From assembly GCA_964494915.1 (NCBI GenBank), contig CAZBTP010000001.1, forward strand, positions 6,792 through 70,791: a stretch of 64,000 nt of DNA. The letters are read 5' to 3'. The notes beneath the pieces were generated by a model. The model searched no databases and was not told the origin of the DNA. It saw nothing but the letters and a program-made list of their open reading frames with translations. This document shows, in pieces, positions 6,320 to 64,000 of the stretch. Every line of letters starts with the position of its first letter. The stretch's first letter is position 1. Made by a program: the position numbers and the translations under genes. The DNA is from Candidatus Woesearchaeota archaeon. Lineage in GTDB: Archaea; Nanobdellota; Nanobdellia; Pacearchaeales; GW2011-AR1.

Positions 6320-6420
6320 CGTCCTCCTTCTTATATAAAATAATATGTCTCAATTTATATATCTTACTGCAAGTATCAAGAATAAAATATATTTACGCTA
6401 AAGCGAAAGATCTTCGTCAC

Positions 6421-6620
6421 CAATCAATCCAGAACCCTCTCGTTAATACCCTTCCACTCACGAAAGGCTTTTTCATACCGCTCCTCATAAACAAAATAAA
6501 AAAATCAGAAATCCTATTTAAAAAGATTTAGCCGAGACTCTTTCGACATCCAAACGGATAATCAAACCACAAGAACTTAAAACACCGTCGACAAACACCG
6601 AAACCATCTTCATTGATACT
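6421..6620. repeat. mosaic intergenic spacer made of copied gene 3' ends (NTase 11663 region, MetRS 3057-3107, secreted gene 3108-3185)
   Basis: 6425-6485 matches 11667-11727 with 3 mismatches. 6481-6531 equals 3057-3107 exactly. 6532-6612 equals 3108-3188 with about 1 mismatch. Confidence 0.85.
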
Positions 6621-6662
6621 TGTCGATTTAGAAATTATTACCTATGTACCTATGGGGATAGG

Positions 6663-10575: not shown

Positions 10576-10983
10576 CTAGCTATTTTTCAATTCCTCGACA
10601 ATTTTTTTGCATTTTTCTATTGCTTGTTTTGCGGTTTCATAATCCATCCTGTTTCCGTAATAAGTAAGGGAGTTTCTTTTATACCTTAAGTCATCAATTA
10701 ATATATACAAATCCTCTCTTTTTAGAACATCCCTTAAATAATAACCTAAGCAAATATGGTTTAATATGTTGAATCCTTTTTTGAAAGCCATTGCCTGCAA
10801 TAATTCAAGCAATGAAGTATAATAATCTTCAAATATAAAATTGCAGTTTTTTTCATTCACTTCTTTAATTAAGTTCATTCTTTCGCTTGCAGTCTCTTGT
10901 AAAGATTCTGCTCTTTTTAGGTCAGGAGTTATAGTTTTAGCTGATTTATTGATTAAGCAATCATCCCAGTTTGCTTCTTTCAT
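10576..10983 (-). CDS. HEPN-domain protein (partner of the adjacent minimal nucleotidyltransferase)
   Basis: 135-aa helical protein overlapping by 4 nt (ATGA) with the upstream MNT gene. R-x(4-6)-H-like region LRYKRNSLTYYG. Typical MNT-HEPN pair arrangement. Confidence 0.55.
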   Translation of the reverse strand: MKEANWDDCLINKSAKTITPDLKRAESLQETASERMNLIKEVNEKNCNFIFEDYYTSLLELLQAMAFKKGFNILNHICLGYYLRDVLKREDLYILIDDLRYKRNSLTYYGNRMDYETAKQAIEKCKKIVEELKNS

Positions 10984-11513
10984 CTAAAAACCTCCACAAA
11001 TCCATTTAATAAAAAGCCGTTTATAACATTATTTGCTAAATGAGGATTTGATAATTCATTAAGATTTTTATGCTGGAATACTTGTATTCTTCTTTTAAGT
11101 AATTTTTCAAATTTTTCAAAAATTACTTTTCTCTTTGAAGGGGTTTCTATATATAAGTCAATATCGCTTTCTTCTGTGTCTTCTCCTTTTGCAAAAGAAC
11201 CGAAAAGAACAATTGCGGGGTTGCTTAATTCCTGTTTTAGATACTCTATAAGCCCTGATTCATATATCTTTTTTATATTGCAGAGCTTTTTTTCCAAGAG
11301 GTATTTTTCACTGCTCCTATTTGCTGTGTAGAAATTAACATTGCCTGTTTTAACTGCTGTTAAAATGCTTTCTTTTTCCAGTTCTTTGCAATATCTTATA
11401 ACAGAAGGAAGAGAAAGTTTAAGGGTTCTTTCTATCTCTCTTACCCTAAGTTTAGCATTAGGATTAACAAAGAAGTATTCACTGATTGTTTGCTTGATAT
11501 CTTTTCTTTTCAT
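10980..11513 (-). CDS. minimal nucleotidyltransferase (MNT) with N-terminal winged-helix domain
   Basis: GSFAKGEDTEESDIDLYIE matches GS-x(9-13)-DxD of the pol-beta NTase superfamily. N-terminal wHTH-like LSLPSVIRYCKELEKESIL. Confidence 0.7.
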   Translation of the reverse strand: MKRKDIKQTISEYFFVNPNAKLRVREIERTLKLSLPSVIRYCKELEKESILTAVKTGNVNFYTANRSSEKYLLEKKLCNIKKIYESGLIEYLKQELSNPAIVLFGSFAKGEDTEESDIDLYIETPSKRKVIFEKFEKLLKRRIQVFQHKNLNELSNPHLANNVINGFLLNGFVEVFR

Positions 11514-35042: not shown

Positions 35043-35128
35043 CGTCCCGGAGAGGACTCGAACCTCTGACCCCATGGTGTCTGTACGACGATAACAGCCA
35101 TGTGCTCTGCCAGCTGAGCTACCGGGAC
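35043..35128 (-). tRNA. tRNA-Asn (anticodon GUU) with 13-nt intron after position 37
   Basis: Cloverleaf GUCCCGG-UA-GCUCAGCUGGCAGAGC-A-CAUGG[CUGUUA+UCGUCGUACAGAC+A]CCAUG-GGGUC-AGAGGUUCGAGUCCUCU-CCGGGAC-G. No CCA encoded. Confidence 0.75.
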
Positions 35129-36929: not shown

Positions 36930-37205
36930 ATGGATGAAACACGAGACAACTTCGACATCTTTTTCAGGCGAAAACCTGCGATGATGTTGGTTGCATTAAA
37001 GCGGATCACACGAGTACGTTACGGAAGCATACTTGCAAAGGAGGTTGACTGTACGTATAGTCATGCTGTCAAGATTCTGCAAAGCCTCGAGCGTTTAGGA
37101 TTGGTAATGTTTGAGAAGAAAGGAAGGATAAAGTTAATTAAACTTACAAAAAGAGGACAAGAAGTTGCTGAGAATATAGAGAATATTAAAAAATCAATTA
37201 GTTAG
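36930..37205 (+). CDS. winged-helix transcriptional regulator
   Basis: 91-aa wHTH-like YGSILAKEVDCTYSHAVKILQSLERLGLV. Its last 6 codons lie within the 72-bp direct repeat. Confidence 0.5.
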   Translation: MDETRDNFDIFFRRKPAMMLVALKRITRVRYGSILAKEVDCTYSHAVKILQSLERLGLVMFEKKGRIKLIKLTKRGQEVAENIENIKKSIS

Positions 37206-37256
37206 GACCTCGTTGCATAAAAGAGCGCCTGTGCTTAAATTGCCGCTGTCTCTTCA
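37185..37256. repeat. 72-bp perfect direct repeat, left copy, bracketing the HEPN-MNT cassette
   Basis: attaaaaaatcaattagttaggacctcgttgcataaaagagcgcctgtgcttaaattgccgctgtctcttca is identical at 37185-37256 and 38277-38348. Confidence 0.9.
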
Positions 37257-37268
37257 CTGTCATGATGT

Positions 37269-37754
37269 TTGAATGGCCCAGACGGACTTCGTGATAAAAA
37301 GTTTCAAAGTAGGGTAATCTCAACATCTTTGTTTTCTGGAAAGTTTTTTATACCGCCTCTTCTTAGATCAAAAATGAGAAAGGAAGTCGGCAATTGGTTA
37401 AAACAGGCAAATAAAGACTTAGAAGTAGCAGAAAAGAATATCAAAATTGAAGAATATTACTCTGCTGTTTTTTGGTGCCAGCAAGCTGTTGAAAAAGGAT
37501 TAAAAGCAGTATATATACTAAAACATAATACCTTGCCGCCAAAAATACACGACTTAGTAGAAATTTGTAGATTGGTAAAGGCACCAGACAACATAGTCTT
37601 GCTGTCCGGGAAGATCGTCACAGCATACATATTCTCACGTTATCCGGGGGCTGCTCCAGAGATGCCCGAAGACTATTATGACAAGGGCAAGGCAGAAGAA
37701 CATGTTAAAATAGCTAAGGAGGTTCTAGAATGGGTTATAAAACTGATAAAATAA
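37269..37754 (+). CDS. HEPN-domain protein
   Basis: FWCQQAVEKGLKAVYILKHNTLPPKIHDL, typical of the HEPN helical core. Start may be MRKEVGN at about 37374. Confidence 0.6.
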   Translation: MNGPDGLRDKKFQSRVISTSLFSGKFFIPPLLRSKMRKEVGNWLKQANKDLEVAEKNIKIEEYYSAVFWCQQAVEKGLKAVYILKHNTLPPKIHDLVEICRLVKAPDNIVLLSGKIVTAYIFSRYPGAAPEMPEDYYDKGKAEEHVKIAKEVLEWVIKLIK

Positions 37755-38047
37755 TTAATTCTTTTGTAAAAAAAGTTAGAAATAAGGTTCCTTCGTCAAG
37801 AATTTATTTATTTGGCTCTAGGGCGAGGGGAACTGCAAAAAAAGGTAGTGATTACGACTTCCTTATTATAAGTAAGGATTTCAGAAATTTTAATTTTGAA
37901 GAAAGATCTGCCAAGATTTATTTTCTAAAAAGAAAGATTCCTGCGGCGATGGATATTTTATGCTACACTCCAGAAGAATTTGAAAAAAAGAAAAAGCAGA
38001 TTGGTATTGTTAAAATCGCTGTTGAAGAGGGAATCGAGATAAAATGA
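37730..38047 (+). CDS. minimal nucleotidyltransferase (MNT)
   Basis: IYLFGSRARGTAKKGSDYDFLII (GS-x9-DxD). Overlaps HEPN gene end. Confidence 0.7.
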   Translation: MGYKTDKIINSFVKKVRNKVPSSRIYLFGSRARGTAKKGSDYDFLIISKDFRNFNFEERSAKIYFLKRKIPAAMDILCYTPEEFEKKKKQIGIVKIAVEEGIEIK

Positions 38048-38160
38048 TATTATTTTACTTTATTATCGGCTTGATTGAAATTCTATTATTTTTGTTCTTG
38101 TCGCTTAATGGAACTTATTTATCCAGATTATGTGTCCCTCTTGAAAAATTAGATTGTATT

Positions 38161-38277
38161 ATCAAAAAAACTTTGAGTTTTACCACACCTTAAAAGATGT
38201 GGTTTGTTAGTTTTTTGGATGCTCAAGGAACTTCCGCATCTTGAAAGGTGCGGTTTTCGTCAAGTTCCTTGACATAA
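38161..38277. repeat. structured repeat element, copy 1 (two nested hairpins plus ACAUAA tail); second copy at 60690-60807
   Basis: atcaaaaaaactttgagttttaccacacc..gtgg..gctcaaggaact.ccgca.cttgaaaggtgcggttttcgtcaagttccttgacataa is shared with 60690-60807 with about 5 differences, which are positioned to preserve pairing (G-U wobble). Confidence 0.75.
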
Positions 38278-38348
38278 TTAAAAAATCAATTAGTTAGGAC
38301 CTCGTTGCATAAAAGAGCGCCTGTGCTTAAATTGCCGCTGTCTCTTCA
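38277..38348. repeat. 72-bp perfect direct repeat, right copy
   Basis: Identical to 37185-37256. Its reverse complement encodes the C-terminal 19 aa of the Toprim ORF. Confidence 0.9.
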
Positions 38349-38724
38349 TCGTATTATCGAGGTTTTCTACCTTCGTCATAAAGTTATGAATGCCTTCGAT
38401 ATGCGGAATATTTGCTTTGATAAGAATGCCACGGAGTGCTGAATCAATGCGACACCCTAATTCCTGGAGAATTGGTTTGATTGTTTCGTAAAGTTTTCTC
38501 CCTCGTTTGTCAAGATCCGTAAGGATACAGATTTTCTCTTTTTTACCGAGTCCAGCGACAATTTCTTCGATTCTCTCTCTAAGAGGGACAGCTGTTTTGT
38601 GGATTGTATAGACTTTATCGAAACCAAAGAGACGGAGTGCATCCCTATCCTTTTTTCCTTCAACAAGAATAACGTACGCTTTGAAGGATTCAATTTCATT
38701 TCTGAGCCTTTGATTGAATTTCAT
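38290..38724 (-). CDS. small Toprim-domain protein
   Basis: VILVEGKKDRDAL...ICILTDLDKRGRKL matches the Toprim E...DxD pattern. C-terminus encoded inside the 72-bp repeat. Confidence 0.55.
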   Translation of the reverse strand: MKFNQRLRNEIESFKAYVILVEGKKDRDALRLFGFDKVYTIHKTAVPLRERIEEIVAGLGKKEKICILTDLDKRGRKLYETIKPILQELGCRIDSALRGILIKANIPHIEGIHNFMTKVENLDNTMKRQRQFKHRRSFMQRGPN

Positions 38725-38734
38725 GATATTTAAA

Positions 38735-38809
38735 TGGCCCCGAGGGGATTTGAACCCCCGACACCTGGATTAAGAGTCCAGTGCTCTAACCGGGCTGAGC
38801 TACGGAGCC
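38735..38809 (-). tRNA. tRNA-Lys (anticodon CUU)
   Basis: GGCUCCG-UA-GCUCAGCCCGGUUAGAGC-A-CUGGA-CUCUUAA-UCCAG-GUGUC-GGGGGUUCAAAUCCCCU-CGGGGCC-A. Confidence 0.85.
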
Positions 38810-44501: not shown

Positions 44502-44885
44502 ATGACTATGAAAGACTTGTTTGATGCAAAGATCGTGTGTAAGCAATGTGACGTACAGATGAAACCAATCTACGTCGAAAAGTCTGGTTTTCGTCTGCGA
44601 GCAATTCACTGTCCACACTGCAATGATAAGATTATTCATCCCGGAGATTTACACGATTTAGAGCAGTATAATGGCTTGCGGCAGAAAACGTTCGATGTGA
44701 AATTACGTATGGTAGGAAACAGCCATGCAATCAGTATCCCGAAAGAGATTGTTGATTTTATTAATGAAACACACCAGCGCATGCATAAACAGATGAGCGA
44801 TATGGTACGTTTAGGATTTGAGGATTTTGGAAAGTTGAGCATTACATTTTTTAATGATGCTCAAAAGAGGGGGCGCGAATGGTAA
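44502..44885 (+). CDS. zinc-ribbon plus AbrB/SpoVT-like (swapped-hairpin) small protein, translationally coupled to cdc48
   Basis: CKQCD...CPHCN ribbon. [22 protein letters not shown] resembles AbrB/MazE. Stop overlaps the CDC48 start (ATGG at 44879). Confidence 0.5.
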
Positions 44886-47800
44886 AGAGCACAGGTATTA
44901 AACTAAAAGTCGTTGAGTCATTGCAAGACGATGTATACAAAGGAGTTGCACGAATCGATCCGCAGATCATGCGATCGATGGGTTTGATGAGGGGCGATAT
45001 TATCACAATTCAAGGCGGGCGAGAAACGCAAGCGATTGTCGATCGTGCATACCCTGCTGATGTCGGCGAGAGTATTATTCGTATCGACGGTCTGATCAGA
45101 AAGAATGCGCGTATTGGCGTCGGTGAGCACGTTATCGTCAAGAAAGCAACGAGCAGACCAGCAACAAAGGTCATTATTGCACCTGCACAGCAAGGGATTA
45201 TGGTACAAGGCGATCCTGAAATGTTAAAGCAGGGTTTGTTAGGACGCCCAGTTGCAAAGGGAGATATCATCTCATTAGGAGGAGTGCATCGCCGGAGAGA
45301 TAGTATAGGTGATGGTTTTCCTGACTTCTTCGGCGATCTACATGATCTGTTCGGAGGGCATCTTGCATTTCCTGGCTTTCAACACCTACGATTTATCGTC
45401 GTTTCAACAATACCAAATCAGCAGTGTTTTATCAATGAAGATAGCGAGATCGTACTAAATCCAAAGGCCGTTGATATCTCTGAAGATGCAATGCCGGGTA
45501 TTACATACGAAGAGATTGGCGGTTTAAGGGACGAGATTAAAAAAATACGTGAAATGGTCGAACTTCCGTTGAAACATCCTGAGATCTTTGAACGTCTTGG
45601 CATTGACGCGCCAAAGGGAGTTTTATTACATGGTCCACCAGGAACTGGAAAGACACTCCTCGCAAAGGCTGTGGCGAATGAGTCCGATGCTAATTTCATT
45701 TTGTTAAATGGTCCTGAGGTCATGAGTAAATTTTACGGGGAATCTGAGAAAAAGATTAGAGATATCTTCGAAGAAGCAGAGAAGCATGCACCGAGCATTA
45801 TCTTTTTCGACGAGATTGATGCGATCGCGCCGAAGCGAGAGGATGTACAAGGAGAGGTTGAACGAAGGGTGGTAAGTCAGTTATTATCAATGATGGATGG
45901 TTTAAAGTCAAGAGGAAAGGTTGTTGTTATTGGAGCGACAAATAGGGTTAATTCTGTTGATCCTGCGTTACGAAGACCTGGAAGATTTGACCGAGAGATT
46001 GAGATCTCTGTCCCCGGAAAGGAGGCGCGTTTAGATATACTAAAGATTCATACGCGAAATATGCCATTAACAAAAAATGTCAATCTTGATATGCTTGCAG
46101 GAAAGACGCACGGTTTTGTTGGCGCTGATTTGTCCGCGTTGACAAAAGAGGCTGCGATGAATGTTCTACGAAAGATGCTACCTGAGCTTAAGATGGACAG
46201 TGAAGAACCAATACCAAAGGAGGTTTTGGAAAAAGCTATTGTTCGCGTCGAGGACTTTGAAGATGCATTAAAGGTTGTACGCCCGAGTGCAATGAGAGAA
46301 GTTTTTGTTGAAACACCAAATGTTTCCTGGGAAGACGTTGGTGGCCTAGAAAAAACAAAGCAAGAATTGAAGGAAGCCGTTGAATGGCCGATTACGAATC
46401 CTGACGGCTTTAAACGACTCGGTATCAGAGCACCACGGGGAATCTTGTTGTATGGACCTCCAGGAACAGGGAAGACGCTATTAGCGAAGGCAGTTGCGAA
46501 GGAATCTGAGGCAAACTTTATTCATATTAAAGGACCTTCGCTATTAAGTATGTGGGTCGGAAAGTCGCTTCCCTATGAGGAAGAGGTTATTGTAATGAAA
46601 AATGGGCTTGTTGATAGAAAACCCATTGGAAGGCTTGTTGAAAACAAAGAGAAGGCTGATGTTATAAGTTTTGATAAACATAAAAAAGTAAAGTTCTCTC
46701 CGATAAAGGATTTTATACTCCATAATTCGGATGGGTCTCTTGTTGAGATCACTACTGCAAGTGGTAGGAAGATTCGTGTAACGAAAGATCATTCATTGTT
46801 TAGTTTGTATGGTACTGAGATTATTGATCTGCCAACGACTCATCTTAAAGAGAATGAGAGCTATATTGCGATTCCGCGGAAACTTCCTCTTCCTGAGATC
46901 GAACCGGAGCCGATTAATCTCTTGCATGTTCTTGAGGAAGAAATTTCTGTTTCTTTTAATAGCTATATTGGGGAAGCGGTTAAGGTGTTAGGAAAAGAAC
47001 GATCTGCCGAAGTACTTGAGATACCTCTAAAGTATATGTATGATGTGCTTAGCAAAGAGTTGGCGATCTCCGCAAAAGGATTTCTAGCCCTCATGAAGGA
47101 AGCAGGAATAGCGTTCGACTATAAGCAGACTAGTATCCATGTACGAAATAGCACCCACTCAATGCAAGCTTCTTTGATTATTACTCCAGAATTGTGCGAA
47201 CTTCTTGGACTATGGGTTGCTGAAGGCGATTACAATAAAAAAAGCGTTCGTATTCATGCGATGAATAAGGAGATACGAATGAGAGTGAGAGAACTTTTAG
47301 ATGTCTGTCGTTTACCCTTCTCGACTAATAAAGAAACCTTTAGTATCAACTCGTTATTATTCCAGCGTATCATGAAGGAAGTTTTCAAGTTATATGATAA
47401 AGCCCATAATAAGCGAATACCTGCTTTGGTGTTTACTTTACCACGGCGATATATTCATTCTTTTTTGAGAGGTTATTACAGTGGAGATGGTTCTATTTAT
47501 TCTACGAATGGAAGAAGTTCTGCTATTGAAGCTGCGACAAAAAGTGAGAAACTAGCGAATGATTTACTTTATCTATTGTTAGGGCTTGGTATCGTTGGAA
47601 GGGTTTATGAAAAGAGCATTGATACAGAACGCTATTATCGAGTTATGTTTATGGGAGTCGACTATCTCACCGTATTTAGCGAGATAGGCTTTATTGATAC
47701 CAAGAGAAATAATAGGATTCTGTTGTACATTAAAAGTAAGAAATGGAAAAGAAGTGATAATATTCCTATTACAGGAGATTTGTACACGCTTCTTCCAAAA

Positions 47801-48619
47801 TCACGAAGATCGAATGAAAGTATTGAACGAGAAGAACTGAGAAAGATTGGGAACCAGTTGAATAATGAAAACATATTAAAATTGGTTGATGCCGATGTTT
47901 ATTTTGATAAGGTCGTTGAAATTACCAATCTCGACTATTCTCTCCCTGTATACGATCTAACAATAAATCCAACTGAGAATTTTGTTGCAGGATTTGGTGG
48001 TGTGTTCGTGCATAATAGCGAAGAAGGCGTTCGAAAGGTTTTTGAGCGCGCGCGGCAGGTCGCACCCTGTGTTGTGTTCTTTGACGAGATTGATGCACTT
48101 GCAGGAAAACGAGGGTTAGAAGTCGGGACAAAGGTAACCGAACGTGTTTTGAATCAGCTCTTAGCAGAGATTGACGGTCTTGAAGACCTAAAAGACGTAA
48201 CTATTATTGGTGCTACGAATCGGCCAGATATGTTAGATCCGGCTATCTTACGACCAGGAAGGTTCGATCGAGTGATCTTGGTTGATATACCCGATGAAAC
48301 AAGTCGTCAGAGAATTTTAGAGATCCATACCAAAAAGACACCGTTGGGAGACGACGTTGATATACGCGAGCTTGTAAAGTTAACCGATGGTTTTGTTGGT
48401 GCTGATTTAGAAGCGTTAGTACGTGAAGCTGCGCTGAATGCATTACGGAAAGATAACAGCGCGAGTATGGTGATGCTTGATGATTTCGACGAAGCGTTCA
48501 AGAGGGTTAAACCCTCAGTATCGCGCGACACTGCGCAGCGATACAAAAAGATCGAAGAGTATTATTTAAAGCGAGCAAAAGCAGGATTAGAAAGTTCCAG
48601 CCCTATGTATGCAGGATAA
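44879..48619 (+). CDS. cdc48: CDC48/VCP-like AAA+ ATPase containing a 484-aa LAGLIDADG intein in the D2 domain
   Basis: N-domain, two Walker A GPPGTGKT, two DEID Walker B, SRH. Extein about 762 aa once 46565-48016 is removed. Confidence 0.9.
46565..48016 (+). mobile_element. intein with LAGLIDADG homing-endonuclease domain inserted between WVGK and SEEGVRK of CDC48 D2
   Basis: Begins with Ser, ends VHN followed by Ser. Motifs [11 protein letters not shown] and [13 protein letters not shown]. Flanks reconstitute the CDC48 consensus LLSxWVGESE. Confidence 0.85.
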
Positions 48620-48711
48620 TCGTATTTTGAAACCGAAAAAAAATCGCTCAAAGAACTCCTTTCCAATTGGCATGGGGCGTCGGTTTCGATCGTGATTTGA
48701 AGCTTGGACCC

Positions 48712-48742
48712 TCTCACGCTAGGTCCCTCTCATCTCTTTTTC
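48712..48742. repeat. 31-bp direct repeat (copy 1) flanking the protease gene 48897-51782
   Basis: tctcacgctaggtccctctcatctctttttc is identical at 48712-48742 and 51777-51807. Confidence 0.85.
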
Positions 48743-48896
48743 TTTTTTAGCATGTTTTAATTAACGGGCTGGACCGCGGGGAATTATTCGACTGCACGTA
48801 CCGTCAATGCAAATCTCTTCTTCTATGCATTCCTGAAGTTGTTCTTCTCGAACACCGCAGGTGTCAACCGAGTAAACATCCGCATTGAAACATATT

Positions 48897-51782
48897 TTAG
48901 AACCGACAACTGTCTCCACGACATGAACGTCCACCACAGCCCGTATATAACGACGAGGGATTCCCACAGGAGTCAAACCAGTAAACATTCCCATTATAGC
49001 AGCTTTTGTATGCAAAATCCGAGCAACATCCTGAAAAATCGAATAAGCAATTGGAATTGCAACCTAATAGTCCACGGTCCCAACAAAAGTTTCCACAGGT
49101 TTTTCCGTTCAATTTGTTTCCTTCGCATTGTTCACCGGGTTCTATTAGGCCGTTTCCACAAATGGCCTGCACCCGGTCTATTGAAGAGGGATTTTCCAAG
49201 ACTACAAGAGCAACTGGCAGGCTTCCACTCCTCCGGAATTGGTTTATCGACTTCAGATAAAGGTTTTCCTTAATTGCGGGTTTGATTTGGGCATTTTGGA
49301 AATTGATTACAGTTTGGGGGTTAACGGTCTGGGAACCAATAACGATATTAGAGGTATCCAACAATTCAAATACCGCACTCGGCCGGTTGTCTGAATTGGA
49401 GTTTATTGAAACCAGTTTCATTTTCATGGTTTGGCCTTCAAAAATCCCTTTGCCTGTCAAGAAGATCATTGATCCCACGTCAATGGTTTTTGTTTCAAAT
49501 GTTCTGTCGCTGGGTTGTTCGATGCAGTAAATTCTTTGTCGGGTTGAACAATCGGATAATGATCTTTTGGTTCTTTCCCATTCAATCGTATTAGTCCCGT
49601 CAATTATCCCAGAAGCGCCTTTTACGGTGGCGCTATGTTGGTCAAAAGTCCAGTCCTGGCAAGTGAGAAGAGCACCCAAAGTCGGAGTCAATCGGTTGCT
49701 TGGTCTCAAAGGTTTTTTTCCAGTCCAAACAAAAGAGTTGACCAACGTTTTTGTTTCATCCAAATTAATGGGGTGTCGAATAGTTCCATCGGTAAGGTCA
49801 TTCCAATCATTTGCGATCCGTGTCCCGTCGAGTAACTGGTAGGGAAAGGGTGTTTCAGCGATTCCATTTCCTGGTTCCATAGCGGAAGTGCCCAGATAGG
49901 CTTTCCATCTTCCTCCCAAGTTGGCGTTGTCCGCGAGTATTTGGCATTGAAAGTCTGCCCCGCGTGTTCCACCGAGGTTTCCTGAAAATTGAGTGCTCGA
50001 AACAAACACTCGAAAGCGATTGCAATCCAATTCGCAGTTCGCAAGGTTTTCGTAGGGTTCGCAGACATTATTGCCACAAGATAAAGGAGAATAGGGTGGA
50101 AAATCAATTTTAACTTGGGTTTCTTCTAAGTTCGTCTTTAAATTGGTGATTCCAACATCGTTAAATGGTGCAATAACTGTTTGACCAGTTGGGATAATCG
50201 GCTTCAGCCAATCCCACTTATCATTTGTTCGCGGATTAGAATGGGGAGTCATATCGAGTAAAATAGGAGACGAGAAATCGTAATCGCTTAACTTTTTATG
50301 AGCCATCGGGCCGTTTATATCGTACTTTTCGCCACCATATATAGCGTCTTTGCCCAGGGGCTGTCGGAATTCAAGATAAAAAGTATAATCCTGCCTTGCT
50401 CCGCACGGAATTTTTAAGACTTTGGTGTTCAGACCCGCTCGTTCAAGCGGAGTTAACGCAATAATTGCATCCTGAGTCACATCCACTATGTTCCCTGAAT
50501 TAAACCAACCCAGTGTTTCTTTTTGGATGCTATTAAAATGTCCGTCGAGGCCGCCCATAATATCAAAATAATCACCATACTCGAAAACAGAACATGCATT
50601 CGGACTGTGAGAAAAAGAGACATCTCCGCATTCCAAACTGCTGGAGTGAGGCAGCCCCAAATTGTGCCCAAATTCATGAATAAATACGTTATAAAAAACA
50701 TCATCGAATCGATATTCTGCTATCAACAGAACCGAAGTTAAAGTTGAACTGCCATCTTGCGTATTAATAAAAGACGATCCGAGAGCAAATCCCAGACCAC
50801 ATGACACTCCGGTGGAAACAATGACTGCGATTCGTTGATAATCCGGATAGAAAATATCAGCATCGGCTACCTCCAGTGCCCTCTGAAGTAGTCCGTGAGA
50901 AGAACACACTTCTACGTCTCCTGAAGTTTCAATGTGGATGATATCCGAGGGTGTATCTCCTCCTTGGTACCATCCAAACACATTGCCAGTAAGCCATGTT
51001 TTACCGTAAGAAACTTCTTTGTAATAAGAATCAACCGAATCCGCATTGGTTAAACCGAATATGCGATCGTGAATTTCTTCTGGAGATACAGTGGGGGTAG
51101 GGCCATCCGAAAAAGCAACTAAAATTACGGCGATTTTTTGTTCTCCCGTCGTCGGAATTTGCGTCCTATCAACCTCAGCACCTGCAATGCCGAGTACTTG
51201 GTCCGCGTTCGCGAGGATAACCTGATTGTCAAGCGCGTACCCACTTAAAACCACTTCTGACCCTGAGTTGGTTTTAGGTTCCCCCATTGCAAAAAATAGT
51301 TCGGATCTCCCAGTTTTTTCTTTCAGAAAGTACCGCTGTTTATACTTTTTGTTTTCGAAGTCGTCCTCGTGCCAGACTTCAAATGTTCCTTGTTTTCGAA
51401 TGGACTGTTCAATATATAGTTTTATCCCTGGAGGCAACCGGTTTCGGGTTTCTCCCGGAAGTGCGAGTTCTAAAAAAGCCTTTGGGTCTTTTTTGATTAA
51501 TTGTAGCATTTTTTGTTTGCGTTGTTTGGCGAAGGTCACTCGTTTGGAGAGTGGAAGAGCATTATTCAGGAGTTGTGTATCGAACTTTTTGATTTGTTCC
51601 TTGTCGCTTACAGCGCTGGCAAAATCCGTTGCAGTGTTTTTTGGTCGAGAAGATGCAATCCCGGAATTTTCTAATATTAAATTTGGACCAAAAACCGAGC
51701 TTTGGATAACTGCTAGTATGCCCACAGCGGAGATAATAAAAACGACGAGTATCCAATTTAGCTGGTGCTTGAACGATCTCAC
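48897..51782 (-). CDS. secreted zinc metalloprotease, M6/InhA-like, with Cys-rich C-terminal region. GTG start.
   Basis: N-terminal TM/signal. EQKIAVILVAF...DSYYKEVSYGKTWLTGNVFGWY...HEFGHNLGLPH (HExxHxxGxxH). C-terminal Cys-rich modules. The start codon GTG lies inside the 31-bp repeat. Confidence 0.7.
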   Translation of the reverse strand: MRSFKHQLNWILVVFIISAVGILAVIQSSVFGPNLILENSGIASSRPKNTATDFASAVSDKEQIKKFDTQLLNNALPLSKRVTFAKQRKQKMLQLIKKDPKAFLELALPGETRNRLPPGIKLYIEQSIRKQGTFEVWHEDDFENKKYKQRYFLKEKTGRSELFFAMGEPKTNSGSEVVLSGYALDNQVILANADQVLGIAGAEVDRTQIPTTGEQKIAVILVAFSDGPTPTVSPEEIHDRIFGLTNADSVDSYYKEVSYGKTWLTGNVFGWYQGGDTPSDIIHIETSGDVEVCSSHGLLQRALEVADADIFYPDYQRIAVIVSTGVSCGLGFALGSSFINTQDGSSTLTSVLLIAEYRFDDVFYNVFIHEFGHNLGLPHSSSLECGDVSFSHSPNACSVFEYGDYFDIMGGLDGHFNSIQKETLGWFNSGNIVDVTQDAIIALTPLERAGLNTKVLKIPCGARQDYTFYLEFRQPLGKDAIYGGEKYDINGPMAHKKLSDYDFSSPILLDMTPHSNPRTNDKWDWLKPIIPTGQTVIAPFNDVGITNLKTNLEETQVKIDFPPYSPLSCGNNVCEPYENLANCELDCNRFRVFVSSTQFSGNLGGTRGADFQCQILADNANLGGRWKAYLGTSAMEPGNGIAETPFPYQLLDGTRIANDWNDLTDGTIRHPINLDETKTLVNSFVWTGKKPLRPSNRLTPTLGALLTCQDWTFDQHSATVKGASGIIDGTNTIEWERTKRSLSDCSTRQRIYCIEQPSDRTFETKTIDVGSMIFLTGKGIFEGQTMKMKLVSINSNSDNRPSAVFELLDTSNIVIGSQTVNPQTVINFQNAQIKPAIKENLYLKSINQFRRSGSLPVALVVLENPSSIDRVQAICGNGLIEPGEQCEGNKLNGKTCGNFCWDRGLLGCNSNCLFDFSGCCSDFAYKSCYNGNVYWFDSCGNPSSLYTGCGGRSCRGDSCRF

Positions 51783-51807
51783 GCTAGGTCCCTCTCATCT
51801 CTTTTTC
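51777..51807. repeat. 31-bp direct repeat (copy 2), overlapping the protease GTG start
   Basis: Identical to 48712-48742. Confidence 0.85.
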
Positions 51808-51986
51808 CTTTTTTTGCAATTGTAATATCCACTATTAATCTTCAATCGATTATTTAAGTTAATCATTGTTTTTATTCCTTTCGTTGCTTGATACTATTTA
51901 AAGGATCCTTACCAAGATATACATATACATCAGATAAGAAAAGAAACAAAGCACGCTCCTCCTAACAAGACCAAAAAGTTTCAAGT

Positions 51987-56861: not shown

Positions 56862-59693
56862 ATGGGAATAAAGAAAGTAAGTGAGAACGTCTGGGAAATC
56901 GAAAAAGAAGGAAGGATGCTAGTTCCAGGGATTGTGTTTGCCTCAGATAGCTTAATGGCTTCAATTCAAAAAGATAAGACACTCGAACAAGTGAAAAACG
57001 TTGCACAGCTTCCAGGAATTGTTGGATATTCTCTCGCGATGCCAGATGCACATCAAGGATATGGAATGGCTGTCGGAGGTGTAGCCGCGTTTGATTCCGA
57101 GCACGGAATTATTTCTCCCGGAGCAGTAGGTTATGACGTGAACTGCTTAACGGGCGATACAGAAATCCTTACAGAATTCGGAAATTCGATAAAAATTGAA
57201 GAATTTGAAAAATACAAATCAGAAATAGAAATTGAACAAAATAACCAAAAAATTAAAAAAATAATATTCTCGCGCAATCTGCCAACCTTAAACCTTGATA
57301 CAAAAAAAATAGAAGATAAATCTATTAATTTATTTATGTCAAGGCACGCGGAAGATGTATGTGAGATAACTTTAGCATCCGGCTTAAAAATTAAAGCTAC
57401 AAGCGATCATCCTTTTTTAACAAAACAAGGAATGAAAAAATTATCTGAATTAAAAGATAACACAGAACTAGCAATAAATACTTTTGAAGGAGTTGAATCC
57501 AGCGAAGTGATAAATGAAAAGGAAGCAATCCTTGCAAAGTTAATTGGTTATATGTTTGGGGATGGTTCCTTCTACGAAACAAAAGGAGAATTACGTGCGG
57601 TAGCTTATGGGCAAAAAGAAGACCTTGAAAAAATAAAGGAAGACTTATCAAGATTAGAAATAAATTCAAGTCTCTTTTGCAGAATAAGGGAGCATAAAAT
57701 ACAGACTCGTTATGGCGAAAAAAGTTTTAATTCTACAAACTGGGAGTTACATATTTATAATCAAGCTTTTCTTAAGATTTTAAAAGAAAGAGGTCTCACG
57801 TTAGGAAATAAAACAAGGCAGAAAATCAGGGTTCCCGAATGGATAAAAAAGTCAAGTAAATTAACAAAAAGATTATTTTTAGCTGGTTTTTTCGGCGCAG
57901 AAATGTCATCTCCTAAAACACTCTCTAGAACATGCTTTTGTAGCTCAACTATTAATCAGAATAAAATAACCTTACTAAAAAAAAACTGTAGAGATTTTCT
58001 TATAGACATCTCTCTGCTTTTAGAAGAATTTGGGATTAAAAATTACAAAATATCAGAGATGGAGGATTATATCAATAAATACAAAGAAAAAACATCAAGA
58101 TTAAGGCTAGCTTTATACGGAGAGGATACAATGTTAAAACTATGGAGAACAATAGGTTTTGAGTATAATAAAAAAAGACAGGACTTGGCAAACATAGCCT
58201 CTTTGTATATCTTACTAAAAAAGCAGGAAAATCAACGGAGGATTGAACTGGCTAGAAAAATAAAACAATACAGGAAAAATGGACTTACAATAGCAGAAGT
58301 AAAGGGACTCTTCCATAAAGAGATTAACGAAAGATTTATAGAAAGGCACTATTACGAAAATGCAAAACAAAGAATCAATCTTGATTTTATTACTTTTAAT
58401 GAGTTCAGAGATATAAAACTCAAAGAAATAAGAGAAATTGGGACTCTTCTTGACAAAATAATTTCTATTAAAAAGATAGAAGGCATACATAAAGTTTATG
58501 ATTTTAACATTCAGGATAATCATAATTTTATTGCAAATGGCTTTATAGTTTCGAATTGTGGAGTACGATTGCTTGCGACGAATATAACGAAAAAAGAATT
58601 TTTACCGAAACGAGGAATAGTATTAAATGAACTCTATAAGAATGTGCCGTCCGGCATCGGAAGAGGAACAGGAATAAAACTTTCAGATGCTGAATGTAAC
58701 GCGGTCTTAGAAAAGGGATTAAAATGGGCACGAGAAAAAGGATATGCGTCTGAGGAAGATATTGAGCACACAGAAGATAAGGGCTGTATTCAAGGAGCGA
58801 ATGCAGCAAAAGTTTCGCAAAGAGCAAAAGCAAGAGGCAGGGATCAGCTCGGGAGCATTGGGGCAGGAAATCATTTCCTTGAAGTACAAGAGATCGTGGA
58901 GATTTTTGATGATCGTGTTGCAAAAACGTTTGGATTAAACGAAGTCAAACAGATCGTAGTAATGATCCATACCGGCTCACGAGGGTTAGGACACCAAACT
59001 GCATCAGATTATATTATGAAAATGGAAAAAGAGTATGGATATAAACACCTTCCAGATCGCGAGTTGGCATATGCGCCAATTACTTCTGCTTTGGGAAAAG
59101 ACTATAGAGAAGCAATGGCGAGTGCTGCTAATTTCGCATTTACAAATCGGCAGATGATCACGCATCTTATAAGAAAAAGTTTTGAGAAGTATTTTCCAAA
59201 CGCGAAACTAAGCGTTGTGTATGATATCGCACATAATATTGCGAAGCTTGAGGAGTTCGAAGTCGAGAACGAGAAAAAAATATTGTGCGTACACCGAAAA
59301 GGTGCAACTCGATCATTTGGACCAGGAAGAAAAGAAATTCCGAGCGATTATAGAGAGGTAGGCTGTCCGATTTTTATTCCAGGAAGTATGGGAACATTTT
59401 CGTATGTCCTCGTCGGAACAAAGAAAGCACGTGAGATTTCGTTTGCGTCAACAGCCCATGGTGCTGGACGAATGCTATCAAGGACGTACGCAAAACAACA
59501 TATTTCTGCTGAGCATTTAAAACAAGGGCTAGCAGAAAGAGATATTATAATTAAAGCTGGATCGCTAAAAGGCATGATTGAAGAAGCGCCAGAGGCGTAT
59601 AAGGATGTGAGCGAGGTTGTTCGTGTTTCACATGCGCTCGGTATTGGAAGCGTAGTTGCAAAGCTGAAACCATTAGCCGTAATGAAAGGGTGA
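56862..59693 (+). CDS. rtcB: RNA-splicing ligase RtcB containing a 471-aa LAGLIDADG intein
   Basis: PDAHQGYG, GYDVN-CGVRL split by the intein, GAGNHF, HTGSRGLGHQ. Extein 472 aa. Confidence 0.9.
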   Translation: MGIKKVSENVWEIEKEGRMLVPGIVFASDSLMASIQKDKTLEQVKNVAQLPGIVGYSLAMPDAHQGYGMAVGGVAAFDSEHGIISPGAVGYDVNCLTGDTEILTEFGNSIKIEEFEKYKSEIEIEQNNQKIKKIIFSRNLPTLNLDTKKIEDKSINLFMSRHAEDVCEITLASGLKIKATSDHPFLTKQGMKKLSELKDNTELAINTFEGVESSEVINEKEAILAKLIGYMFGDGSFYETKGELRAVAYGQKEDLEKIKEDLSRLEINSSLFCRIREHKIQTRYGEKSFNSTNWELHIYNQAFLKILKERGLTLGNKTRQKIRVPEWIKKSSKLTKRLFLAGFFGAEMSSPKTLSRTCFCSSTINQNKITLLKKNCRDFLIDISLLLEEFGIKNYKISEMEDYINKYKEKTSRLRLALYGEDTMLKLWRTIGFEYNKKRQDLANIASLYILLKKQENQRRIELARKIKQYRKNGLTIAEVKGLFHKEINERFIERHYYENAKQRINLDFITFNEFRDIKLKEIREIGTLLDKIISIKKIEGIHKVYDFNIQDNHNFIANGFIVSNCGVRLLATNITKKEFLPKRGIVLNELYKNVPSGIGRGTGIKLSDAECNAVLEKGLKWAREKGYASEEDIEHTEDKGCIQGANAAKVSQRAKARGRDQLGSIGAGNHFLEVQEIVEIFDDRVAKTFGLNEVKQIVVMIHTGSRGLGHQTASDYIMKMEKEYGYKHLPDRELAYAPITSALGKDYREAMASAANFAFTNRQMITHLIRKSFEKYFPNAKLSVVYDIAHNIAKLEEFEVENEKKILCVHRKGATRSFGPGRKEIPSDYREVGCPIFIPGSMGTFSYVLVGTKKAREISFASTAHGAGRMLSRTYAKQHISAEHLKQGLAERDIIIKAGSLKGMIEEAPEAYKDVSEVVRVSHALGIGSVVAKLKPLAVMKG
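57144..58556 (+). mobile_element. intein with LAGLIDADG homing endonuclease in RtcB at the GYDVN/CGVRL site
   Basis: Starts CLTGDTEIL (block A), LIGYMFGDGSF and FLAGFFGAEMS LAGLIDADG motifs, ends IVSN followed by Cys. Terminal Asn is preceded by Ser rather than His. Confidence 0.85.
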
Positions 59694-59696
59694 TGT

Positions 59697-60425
59697 ATGA
59701 AGGTTATTATTGTTCGTAACAAAAACGAAGGAGGAGCACGTGCAGCAAAGCTCGTTTCCGATATTATTCAAAACAAAAAGAACTGTACACTCGGATTAGC
59801 GACAGGAAAAACAATGATTCCTTTTTATCGAGCGCTCATCAGCGCGGCGCATACAAAGAAGATAGATTTTTCTCGAGTAAAGACCTTTAATATTGATGAG
59901 TTTTATGGTCTAAACACTCCCGAGAAGGGAAGTTTTCGACATTTTATGGATTCACATTTTTTTCACAGAGTAAATATAAGCAAGAAAAATATTCATTTTT
60001 TAGATGGGAAAAAAAAGGATTATAAAAAAGAGTGTAACGAATACGAACGTGCAATAAAACACAAGGAGGGAATCGATATAGCAATCGTGGGTATCGGAAA
60101 AAACAGGCATATTGGTTTTAATGAGCCCGGATCGTCTTTTGCAAGCAGAACGCGAAAAGTGAGATTGCGCGATGAAACACGGCACGCAAATGCCTGGCTG
60201 TTTGAATCCTTTTCGCGCGTGCCTCAGTATGCGCTAACAATGGGTATTGAAACAATACTCGCTTCACGAAAGATTATCTTGTTAGCCTTCGGAAAAGAAA
60301 AAGCAACTGCTGTTGCAGCCACCTTCAAGCATGTCACACAACAAGTGCCAGCGAGCGTCCTACAACGTCATACTAATGTAACGTTTATTATCGACCGCGC
60401 GGCAGCCAAGCGCGTGTTTAAATAA
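59697..60425 (+). CDS. nagB: glucosamine-6-phosphate deaminase/isomerase family (NagB-like)
   Basis: TLGLATGKTMIPFY, FNIDEFYGL, GIGKNRHIGFNEPGSSFASRTR. Confidence 0.85.
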   Translation: MKVIIVRNKNEGGARAAKLVSDIIQNKKNCTLGLATGKTMIPFYRALISAAHTKKIDFSRVKTFNIDEFYGLNTPEKGSFRHFMDSHFFHRVNISKKNIHFLDGKKKDYKKECNEYERAIKHKEGIDIAIVGIGKNRHIGFNEPGSSFASRTRKVRLRDETRHANAWLFESFSRVPQYALTMGIETILASRKIILLAFGKEKATAVAATFKHVTQQVPASVLQRHTNVTFIIDRAAAKRVFK

Positions 60426-60429
60426 TCCC

Positions 60430-60672
60430 TTGACAATACAATACAATACAATGAAAAAAGTTGTATTTACATTCACAAACGCCCTCTACCCAACACAAAA
60501 GATAATAAAAGAGATAGTATTTAGTGACGATATTATTTCCTCACGCTATTGGTCACTTCAATTATCGAGCGTGTCAGGATTAACACCGGGTCAATATGCA
60601 CTCTCAATAAAAGCCTACAACAGAGAATATATTTCCTCTCCTCCAATAACACTAACATTAACGCTAACCTAA
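60430..60672 (+). CDS. hypothetical small protein
   Basis: 80-aa ORF 5 nt after the nagB stop. Confidence 0.3.
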   Translation: MTIQYNTMKKVVFTFTNALYPTQKIIKEIVFSDDIISSRYWSLQLSSVSGLTPGQYALSIKAYNREYISSPPITLTLTLT

Positions 60673-60689
60673 GTCTCTTTTTTTGAACA

Positions 60690-60807
60690 ATCAAAAAAAC
60701 TTTGAGTTTTACCACACCTTAAAAAGTGTGGTTTGTTAGTTTTTTGGACGCTCAAGGAACTACCGCACCTTGAAAGGTGCGGTTTTCGTCAAGTTCCTTG
60801 ACATAAC
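60690..60807. repeat. structured repeat element, copy 2
   Basis: See copy 1 (38161-38277). Both hairpins are perfect here (ccacacc/ggtgtgg and ccgcacc/ggtgcgg inside caaggaact/agttccttg), followed by ACAUAA. Confidence 0.75.
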
Positions 60808-62639: not shown

Positions 62640-62760
62640 ATAATAGTTTCTCTGTAAAACTAATTATCAAGAAAAGTTAATTTTTTAGTTAAGATAACTC
62701 CCTTTAACTTGACAGCTCAAGCCAAGAGCATGTTTAAATAATCTCTCGACAATATAATAA

Positions 62761-64000
62761 AATGAAAAAAAGAGGTAAAAAGTTGTATAAGTTGTATATC
62801 CTCTATGCCCTAGGTACAGTTCTTCTTCTCACGCTCATAATCTTTGGAATAACCAAAGGAACTATTCACGGAGCATACACGATCGATACAGATGAATATT
62901 TTAATCCTGGTCCTGGTTTATTAGGACTACGCCAAATATCGCGAGAGTACTTCGGTGCTGAGGATTATGTAGTTCTAGCAAAAGAAGGAGATATAAGGAT
63001 CGAGAAAATAACTGAGTATATAATACTCTCAACTAGGACGCCAACAACAACTGTATTTCAAAACTCGTATATTGAGAAACGCGTATCGATAAAAGAATGG
63101 CTTGGGTCAACAGCGAGTCTAATAAAACAATATAATTCAGTAGAAATTCGTGCTAGCTCAGGTAGACTGCTGATAGAGTATAGCGAAAATGATAGGGCAG
63201 CACAACATAGAGGTAAAGTTGAAAATAAAATGCTAATAGAATACCAAGGAGGGATAGTAAAAAGATTTGAAAAAGAGGTTAAGGACTATATTATAGCGGG
63301 TGAGATACCACCAGTGCAATACACACCTCCAGCCTCACTAGACGATCCTAATCTTGAATTAGAGAGTAAATATGTCGAGATAGTTGAATATGACCCTACA
63401 ACAAGCGCTACTGCTTGGAATGATGATCCCCTCAACTTATTTACACGCGGTGATCTGGTTGGGAAACTAAAAAAATACATTCAAGAACATACAGTCTACG
63501 GTTTTAGGACACCCTATCCAGATTTCATTTTAATAACAGATGGTTTAATACAGCATGACGAACGTAGAAAAAAAGAGTATAACCCTCCAGGAATAATCGC
63601 GACATATGACCATACAAAAAGGGAATATACGAAACCACCGACTTTCCCAAATCCTCCGCTTTCACGGAGCCAGCAAAAATTAAAGAAGTATATAAACGAA
63701 CAGACTATTTACCATCCAAATGGTCCAATATATAAACACAGTTCTACTTTAGAAGACTATGATGATAACGGAGTGCCAAAAAGCTCAATAATAAAATCAA
63801 TTCATAATAACGATAAGGGCCAGAACTTTTATAACTATCAGACAAAGAAAACATATGATGAGAACGGAAACCTCATTGAAGAGAAAAAGACAGAAAAGCA
63901 AAATGACGAAGCGACATTAAAGAAACAAAGTTATCTCCATAGCGAAGAAACACCTCAAAAAACATATACATTCAATAAAAGGTGGTATCTTGATACAGCA
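62761..64000 (+). CDS. hypothetical membrane-anchored protein (3' partial, continues past window end)
   Basis: ATG at 62761, N-terminal TM LYILYALGTVLLLTLIIFGI, and over 410 sense codons without a stop in an AT-rich region. Confidence 0.45.

Follow-up and report, generated by a model that had tools for sequence, protein, structure and literature searches.

Several described systems each resemble part of the arrangement analysed here. Toxin-antitoxin modules of the HEPN-MNT kind (type VII) consist of adjacent, overlapping genes for a PF05168 and a PF01909 protein, the latter with a GSX10DXD motif, and are small, accessory and patchily distributed over many contexts in archaea and bacteria. Integrated elements of archaea are typically bounded by attL and attR sites in the form of perfect direct repeats of 40-100 bp, and integrase-less islets flanked by such sites are known as cis-mobilisable elements and, in archaeal chromosomes, as 'gene capture' remnants of tRNA-integrating elements. 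Host functions can also bring in DNA by homology-facilitated illegitimate recombination, which classically deletes, rather than duplicates, recipient DNA, or by Campbell-type integration; we know of no study of either mechanism in DPANN archaea. Transposition usually duplicates 2-14 bp of its target, and IS1549 and IS1634, whose family is common in Euryarchaeota, generate target duplications of 8-514 bp (PMC2266710). Here we analyse a 64-kb stretch (the window) of a Candidatus Woesearchaeota genome from the order Pacearchaeales (GCA_964494915.1, contig CAZBTP010000001.1, positions 6,792 to 70,791), in which a 1020-bp segment with a HEPN-MNT gene pair lies between two identical 72-nt repeats. 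The locus documents well a recent insertion, without an integrase, of a cassette of a known kind, and the stretch of native sequence duplicated along with it is unusually long. The explanation that we tentatively prefer is a recent capture of foreign DNA from a related lineage through host recombination or repair, with no machinery of its own.

The two copies of the 72-nt direct repeat are 100% identical, lie 1092 nt apart and form the sole family of this kind returned by the repeat finder; no other copy is present in the window (BLAST E = 5e-32). They enclose the insert (37257-38276), which has a GC content of 34.4% as against 40.3% for the window. The left copy contains the last six codons and the stop of a winged helix-turn-helix (wHTH) gene (ending in ...IKKSIS), and the right copy, read on the minus strand, contains the stop of a Toprim gene, 18 full codons and 2 nt of the 19th. 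Reconstruction of the locus with a single 72-mer makes the wHTH and Toprim stop codons overlap by 8 nt (TTAGTTAG) and resolves the repeat into 21 nt of wHTH end and 51 nt of Toprim tail. Duplication of these 72 nt thus left both genes with intact ends. An initial annotation, made from the letters of the window, had described the perfect flanking duplication, the division of the two gene ends between its copies and a cargo of HEPN gene, MNT gene and structured element; all three descriptions hold, with the Toprim share as given here and the element measuring 117 nt instead of about 108.

The empty site was found in a sister genome. The closest Toprim homologue (143 aa, 76% identity) comes from GCA_964413975.1 and from a separate ENA assembly. 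At this sister locus (L009; labels of this type denote stretches recovered from other assemblies and metagenomes) the Toprim gene (6001-6432) and a 91-aa wHTH orthologue (6425-6700), whose protein is 96% identical to that of the window, converge with the same 8-nt overlap. No HEPN gene, MNT gene or structured element lies between them, and the region of the 72-mer is present in single copy. The convergent, overlapping pre-insertion locus that had been postulated for the window is therefore the arrangement seen in its relative. The flanks of the two genomes align at 84-90% and the part encoding the C-terminal tail of Toprim is barely alignable; most Toprim homologues, at 122-124 aa, do not possess this tail.

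The segment is hence an insertion into gene ends that formerly overlapped tail to tail, and the 72-mer is duplicated native target sequence and not a dispersed repeat, the alternative against which the initial annotation had set its own reading. Since the 72-mer joins 21 nt of a conserved wHTH end to 51 nt of a Toprim tail that has diverged from the sister, an incoming element could hardly have brought an identical copy with it. The repeats are identical even where they serve no gene, in the Toprim tail of the left copy and the wHTH end of the right one, which indicates that the event is recent; the identity of these unselected parts places the duplication much later than the split from the sister species. 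The tail being dispensable in most relatives, the duplication is better read as a by-product of insertion, and selection for it need not be invoked.

It is very improbable that the repeat stems from strain variants mis-joined during assembly. The data are metagenomic and several contigs do break at or inside the repeats; against this, both junctions and the full structure recur unchanged (100% identity) in ENA assemblies made independently with k = 119 to 139, and a single 7830-bp ENA contig covers both insert junctions. K-mers longer than the 72-nt repeat, together with the spanning contig, argue that the arrangement is not an assembly artefact. Contig k119_55944 of ERZ27284375 (L002/L004) begins inside the left repeat, at window position 37198, exactly where the duplicated Toprim stop lies, and its start could reflect an upstream strain variant or mere low coverage. 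The features of the locus are collected in Table 1.

Table 1. Features at the insertion locus and the second copy of the structured element, in window coordinates.
Feature	Coordinates	Strand	Remarks
wHTH gene, 91 aa, conserved	36930..37205	+	HTH_27, E = 3.8e-5; last 21 nt, including stop, inside left repeat
Left 72-nt repeat copy	37185..37256		Functional wHTH 3' end and non-functional duplicate Toprim tail
Left non-coding end of insert, 117 nt	37257..37373		tRNA-Lys-like relic (minus strand, ~37293 to 37260) and TATA-like box upstream of HEPN
HEPN gene, 126 aa, putative toxin	37374..37754	+	Pfam PF05168, E = 1.2e-26
MNT gene, 105 aa	37730..38047	+	Pfam PF01909, E = 1.6e-15
MNT-to-element spacer, 113 nt	38048..38160		Overlaps doubtful 49-aa ORF; no Pfam family
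Two-hairpin structured element, 117 nt	38161..38277	+	3' end (...TTGACATAA) is the right insert junction
Right 72-nt repeat copy	38277..38348		Functional Toprim tail and stop, non-functional duplicate wHTH end
Toprim (RNase M5-like) gene, 144 aa, conserved	38290..38724	-	Pfam Toprim, E = 2.8e-6; C-terminal tail of ~20 aa lineage-specific
tRNA-Lys(CTT), conserved neighbour	38735..38809	-	10 nt upstream of Toprim ATG
Structured element, copy 2	60690..60806	+	96% identical to copy 1; between 73-aa ORF and PIG-L gene

Domain content and gene arrangement identify the HEPN-MNT pair as a putative toxin-antitoxin module. The PF05168 match covers residues 7-121 of the 126 of the HEPN protein, the MNT protein presents the GSX10DXD motif (GSRARGTAKKGSDYD), and the two genes overlap by 25 nt. 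The pair departs from type VII modules in that HEPN lies upstream of MNT, and it may also depart in the canonical Rx4-6H RNase motif, which is not evident (SRYPGAAPE): on a by-eye reading of this one sequence, the C-terminal half of HEPN (…FSRYPGAAPEMPEDYY…) shows no R with an H 4-6 residues further on. A 49-aa hydrophobic open reading frame (ORF; 38044-38193) starts at the MNT stop (overlap ATGA) and extends into the structured element; no family matches it, and it may be spurious. A second PF01909 nucleotidyltransferase protein, of 177 aa, is encoded elsewhere in the window (10980-11513).

The closest relatives of the HEPN protein, at 79, 70, 63 and 54% identity, were followed as possible traces of a donor, and their similarity to the insert was limited to coding sequence, with unrelated flanks. 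HEPN relatives are encoded in tandem HEPN-MNT pairs, beside PCNA and beside a surface protein, and the structured element was not found with the HEPN-MNT relatives elsewhere. Two cassettes stand in tandem at L029 (513-2124); L081 and L083 share the context upstream of their HEPN-MNT genes and differ downstream of MNT; and on a 754-bp contig (L033, 41-319) a 43-aa HEPN N-terminus continues into a DHFR C-terminus, perhaps as a chimera or as a junction. Searches of viral contigs with the HEPN protein and with the 40-nt centre of the 72-mer (exact) gave no match, and no second HEPN-MNT copy was detected in assemblies containing this genome. Literature searches on toxin-antitoxin cassettes flanked by direct repeats and on mobile elements of Pacearchaeota yielded nothing directly relevant.

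The setting of the insertion was compared over 44 related loci (L034-L077) obtained by scanning metagenomes with a Toprim alignment. TFS, tRNA-Lys, Toprim, convergent wHTH and a 175-aa gene follow one another in an order that is widely conserved among them. A wHTH gene at 73-96% amino acid identity adjoins Toprim in the sister and in 34 of the 44 loci, and it is convergent with Toprim except in four where it is inverted (L062, L064, L066 and L067). The gap from stop to stop ranges from 0 to about 1050 nt, and what occupies it differs: a peroxiredoxin gene in L039, a Na/H-exchanger-like fragment in L057, small unknown ORFs elsewhere. In the 13 loci with a gap of about 150 nt or more, the cargos showed no flanking repeat longer than 14 nt and no common core. 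Among all 44 loci and the window, the HEPN-MNT pair and the long repeat were seen at this junction in the window only, which fits a very recent event. The Toprim/wHTH junction thus looks like a recurrent, permissive spot of gene turnover and not like a specific att site.

These data bear directly on the reading of the 72-mer as an att core, which the initial annotation had put forward. In that scenario an integrase-less, cis-mobilisable element would have carried the core on a circle and recombined with the chromosome by means of a tyrosine or serine recombinase acting in trans. In its length and its lack of mismatches the repeat agrees with archaeal attL/attR pairs, the relic resembling a tRNA 3' end at the left edge of the cassette (described below) is what a history of tRNA integration would leave, and the junction is reused across the clade. 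The insert also shares with integrase-less islets its cargo between perfect direct repeats, its lack of an internal recombinase and the tRNA-like relic at one edge. The repeat differs from theirs in consisting of the 3' ends of two protein genes where these overlap, and not of a tRNA or another conserved target: 51 of its 72 nt belong to a fast-diverging, lineage-specific tail, hardly alignable even with the sister, and would make a poor conserved target. In addition, the other cargos at the same junction have no long repeats and no common core, neither the insert nor the scanned ORFs of the window encode an integrase, and the 72-mer has no third copy in the window and, in its 40-nt centre, no exact match in viral contigs. 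We consequently regard an att-type origin as quite unlikely.

Of the features expected of a transposon, the insert presents one, a target duplication of 72 nt of native sequence, and lacks both a transposase gene and terminal inverted repeats. The best local alignment between its ends scored 12, a value equalled by 422 of 1000 shuffles. Its ORFs are HEPN, MNT and the 49-aa ORF, and Pfam searches identified no recombinase, integrase or transposase among them, in agreement with the initial annotation. The same was true of another 37 ORFs of the window (at least 170 aa in all cases but one), of which 27 matched a Pfam family and 10 did not. The duplication is, as in IS1549 and IS1634, far above the usual range, but those elements are autonomous and possess a DDE transposase and inverted ends, neither of which is found here.

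The remaining candidate for a mobile component was the structured element at the right edge of the insert. An exact 21-mer from its 3' part retrieved 18 stretches from six other DPANN assemblies (labelled Pacearchaeota, Woesearchaeota or Nanoarchaeota) and no match in viral contigs. Altogether 28 copies were detected at E < 1e-7: two in the window, 22 in the 18 stretches of the six reference genomes (19 of them by the exact 21-mer) and four in metagenomes (L037, L039, L073 and L074). Coordinates include 138-230 in L037 and 7470-7588 in L039, the other copies outside the window lying in L011-L028 and L073/L074. The element thus belongs to an unannotated structured repeat family common to many genomes of Pacearchaeota and Woesearchaeota type; at least seven DPANN genomes contain several copies each. 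Rfam 15 holds no family for it, the best sub-threshold match of the window copy and of a canonical copy reaching 25 bits against a gathering score of 88; at gathering score, Rfam matched only tRNAs in the window.

The canonical element is 124 nt long, within a family range of 117-124 nt, and has sharp ends (ATCAAAA... and ...TTGACATAA). It folds into two similar hairpin modules in direct orientation, each with an outer stem, a 2-nt bulge, an inner 7-bp stem, a 6-nt A-rich loop and a 10-nt internal loop on the 3' side. Some copies carry extra hairpins, those in L016 and L021 are collapsed to a single 64-nt module, and L012 contains three copies inside 2.3 kb. When 22 copies were aligned, bases paired in 95.4% of cells and compensatory changes occurred in 41 of the 44 pairs; the alignment had been fitted to the structure model, and its 3' part was fixed by the search pattern. 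Sliding the 3' partners by 1-3 columns reduced the paired cells to 34-45%, and no shuffle reached the observed values. T-runs on both strands suggest a terminator-like role.

The family resembles repetitive extragenic palindromes (REP/REPIN) and miniatures derived from IS200/IS605 ends in being multi-copy and intergenic, with two direct hairpin modules, sharp ends and compensatory changes; T-runs suggestive of a terminator-like role were noted in the same comparison. It differs from them in that no Y1 transposase or RAYT is obvious among its neighbours, no target motif is conserved at its ends, and no similarity in sequence or in Rfam was found. An integron attC site forms one long imperfect hairpin with the core sites RYYYAAC and GTTRRRY at its ends. 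This reading was rejected for the element, which has two separate hairpins, the ends ATCAAAA… and …TTGACATAA and no GTTRRRY. Guide RNAs of the H/ACA or C/D type were likewise discarded on inspection by eye, the internal loops of 2 nt versus 10 nt offering no guide pocket and no box motifs being present.

The genes next to the element are not related to one another and occur in both orientations, some copies begin 1-2 nt after a tRNA, and no conserved neighbour gene was found. No inverted repeats were found at the element ends, and in 20 other copies neither a duplication next to the 3' end nor an adjacent HEPN or MNT gene was seen. At the position of the second window copy the sister has a decayed remnant and not a clean empty site, in the one orthologous comparison made, which indicates that the element is old at that locus and not newly inserted. 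The nagB to PIG-L segments containing these copies (window 60426-60806, L078 3104-3515) are not homologous, and the last nagB codons differ too; the window has a promoter, the 73-aa ORF and the element, and the sister a seemingly degraded minus-strand gene and the decayed remnant.

The initial annotation had proposed the element as a cis-acting end of the cassette and had suggested looking for other copies abutting HEPN, MNT or other cargo. What speaks for this role is that the insert stops within 1 nt of the element 3' end; the 20 other copies, with no duplication and no consistent cargo, and the age of the second copy do not bear it out. The same evidence weighs on a more general scheme, in which the element would be the cis-acting 3' end of a non-autonomous unit of cargo plus element, mobilised by an enzyme encoded elsewhere whose long-stagger cut would produce the 72-bp duplication. 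Besides the position of the junction, the scheme can draw on the sharp ends, covariation and multi-copy presence of the element in at least seven genomes, on the shared orientation of cargo and element at both window loci, and on the existence of transposases with long, variable duplications such as IS1549 and IS1634 (PMC2266710). Against it stand the 20 copies whose 3' ends adjoin no duplication, with unrelated genes upstream of the element in either orientation; the insert has no inverted repeat ends, the second window copy is ancestral and decayed in the sister, not a fresh insertion, no transposase is encoded among the scanned window ORFs, and the HEPN-MNT relatives elsewhere do without the element. 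We hold mobilisation in trans to be unlikely, and more doubtful still the proposal that the element defines the 3' end of a new class of non-autonomous DPANN cassettes, moved by a trans-acting enzyme with a very long stagger, of which this locus would be the first fresh insertion with a perfect 72-bp duplication. Thus, of the mobile cassette with an unusual insertion mechanism that was initially envisaged, the recent insertion stands, and the mechanism finds no support in the tests run, which leave room for a new one.

Another process that would require no element-encoded function is replication-based template switching, or the fill-in of a staggered break, in the absence of homology: a fork or a broken end would copy about 1 kb of a different DNA molecule, and synthesis would then resume 72 nt behind on the original template. 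This would account for a native duplication of arbitrary length, for an insert that is a mosaic of relic, cassette and host-type element, and for the missing inverted ends, and the right junction shows 1 nt of microhomology (A) and the left junction a repeated GACAG. Copies should, however, equal their sources, whereas the element in the insert differs from the second window copy at 5 of 117 positions, the relic is about 80% like the native junction, and the assemblies containing this genome hold no second HEPN-MNT copy. Given the non-identity of element copies and relic, the sources would have to lie elsewhere or be foreign. We consider such an origin possible, at a rather low probability.

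The left end of the insert bears on where the segment came from. Read on the minus strand, its first 35 nt (CGAAGTCCGTCTGGGCCA TTCAAACATC ATGA) comprise a fragment like the 3' end of a tRNA-Lys, a 10-nt spacer and ATGA. The native tRNA-Lys/Toprim junction, 1.4 kb away, reads ...TCCCCTCGGGGCCA TTTAAATATC ATGA, and the relic agrees with this junction at the Toprim start at 18 of 20 core positions and at 26 of 33 in a wider alignment. In a shuffle test over the 3-kb neighbourhood, 1 of 300 shuffles reached the local score. At two of the related loci, L062 and L064, the sequence AGTCCGTCGGGCCATTTAAAC stands directly upstream of the Toprim ATG and matches the relic at 20 of 22 positions. The relic occupies window positions 37260-37293 (minus strand) and was recorded together with stretches of L062 (1560-1604), L064 and L035 (~2080-2120).

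ARAGORN identified no intact tRNA containing the L062/L064 fragment. The fragment is preceded by a two-gene cassette that is toxin-antitoxin-like only by gene arrangement and by a sub-threshold match of one gene to PBECR2, a Barnase/RelE-like nuclease family (23.9 bits against a cut-off of 27.1). The left end of the insert hence resembles the junction of another lineage, composed of a displaced tRNA-Lys 3' fragment, a spacer and a Toprim start, a likeness that is suggestive but not conclusive. On the strength of this likeness, the incoming DNA is taken to derive from the corresponding, homologous region in a related archaeon. With the relic joined to the final 19 codons of the resident Toprim, the left repeat copy moreover resembles a second Toprim unit from which the body has been deleted. 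A relaxed tblastn search for other relics of Toprim, wHTH, TFS or neighbouring genes in the insert returned noise only. In this clade, small cassettes may integrate at the tRNA-Lys/Toprim junction. Beside the same tRNA, the sister has a DUF2334 gene (L009 5006-5785) between TFS and tRNA-Lys that has no counterpart in the window, a presence/absence difference.

The events can then be tentatively ordered under capture by the host. A segment composed of the HEPN-MNT pair with its own promoter and a terminator-like structured element would have entered the 3'-3' junction of two overlapping conserved genes through recombination or repair functions of the recipient. The joints in the recipient would lie 72 nt apart, so that the native stretch between them would come to stand on both sides of the insert. 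The donor was probably a homologous neighbourhood in a related DPANN lineage, where small toxin-antitoxin cassettes lie beside a displaced tRNA-Lys 3' fragment upstream of Toprim. Homology to Toprim or wHTH may have aided entry. The left repeat may be the residue of a once longer second copy of Toprim, a history that would suggest integration of the homology-facilitated or Campbell type and a subsequent internal deletion. From general knowledge, recombination between the two 72-mers could remove the cassette precisely, and the toxin-antitoxin pair would be expected to oppose its loss.

Host-mediated capture needs no function encoded by the element, accounts for a native duplication of arbitrary length and is consistent with a junction that is a general hot spot; the occurrence of HEPN-MNT relatives in many unrelated contexts, sharing no flanks with the insert, supports it as well. 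The insert has in common with the products of homology-facilitated illegitimate recombination and Campbell-type integration a reliance on host functions, a one-sided homology to the Toprim neighbourhood of the recipient and flanking direct repeats of recipient sequence. It differs in that recipient DNA is here duplicated, where these processes classically delete it.

Several observations weigh against capture by the host. The donor locus was not found. The relic is short, and the native junction is the best match in the window to the left non-coding part of the insert by a narrow difference (score 36 versus 34 for the next). Under a simple Campbell model with a diverged donor, it is hard to see how the 72-mers can be 100% identical when the relic has only about 80% similarity to native sequence. 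Within the insert, the element copy shares lineage-specific features with the second window copy; being of the host lineage's own type, it favours either a closely related donor or an insert of mosaic origin. Finally, the coincidence of the right junction with the 3' end of the element, to within 1 nt, would be unexpected for a random fragment and hints at a defined end or a preferred break point. With these points taken into account, we rank host capture first, followed in turn by homology-free, replication-based copying, mobilisation in trans, att-type integration and assembly artefact.

Two further pairs of direct repeats in the window were considered as older events of the same kind and set aside, because they more closely resemble duplications of promoters or gene 5' ends. 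One pair (D13; 48702-48748 and 51767-51813; 47 nt, 91%) flanks a gene for a 961-aa metallopeptidase-like protein, and the other (D14; 60404-60447 and 62720-62763; 44 nt, 86%) flanks a block of small ORF, structured element, PIG-L and glycosyltransferase genes; the repeats of both pairs include a TATA-like box and a start codon. The RtcB gene (56862-59693) encodes 943 aa, as against 472 aa in the sister (L078 944-2362), and a CDC48-like ATPase (44879-48619) has 1246 aa; both genes probably carry inteins, that of RtcB being absent from the sister. At 35043-35128, ARAGORN reported an 86-nt 'tRNA-Stop (tta)', to which Rfam assigned its tRNA family with 58 bits; the sequence CTGTTAT and some 13 additional nt after it suggest a tRNA with an intron, perhaps tRNA-Asn (GTT), mis-read in bacterial mode, and not a suppressor. 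Positions 3104-10361 hold ORFs of 1071 and 1232 aa made of tandem repeats of ~390-410 nt, the first with no Pfam family, and adjacent blocks are duplicated (repeat families D1-D7, D10 and D12).

The structured repeat family is a by-product of this analysis of broader interest, and it deserves study, whether as terminator, small RNA or mobile element. For the insertion itself, the value of the locus lies in the comparison it affords. DPANN archaea have tiny genomes and are not grown alone, and to our knowledge the routes by which they gain genes are almost unknown. With the empty site preserved in the sister and the filled site in the window, the locus forms a before-and-after pair in which the entry of a defence-type toxin-antitoxin cassette can be followed at base resolution, with neither of the adjoining genes harmed. 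Ordinary transposition would not produce so long a flanking repeat, and an ordinary att site would not be so lineage-specific, which points either to gene capture by host recombination or to an as yet unknown insertion activity in these archaea.

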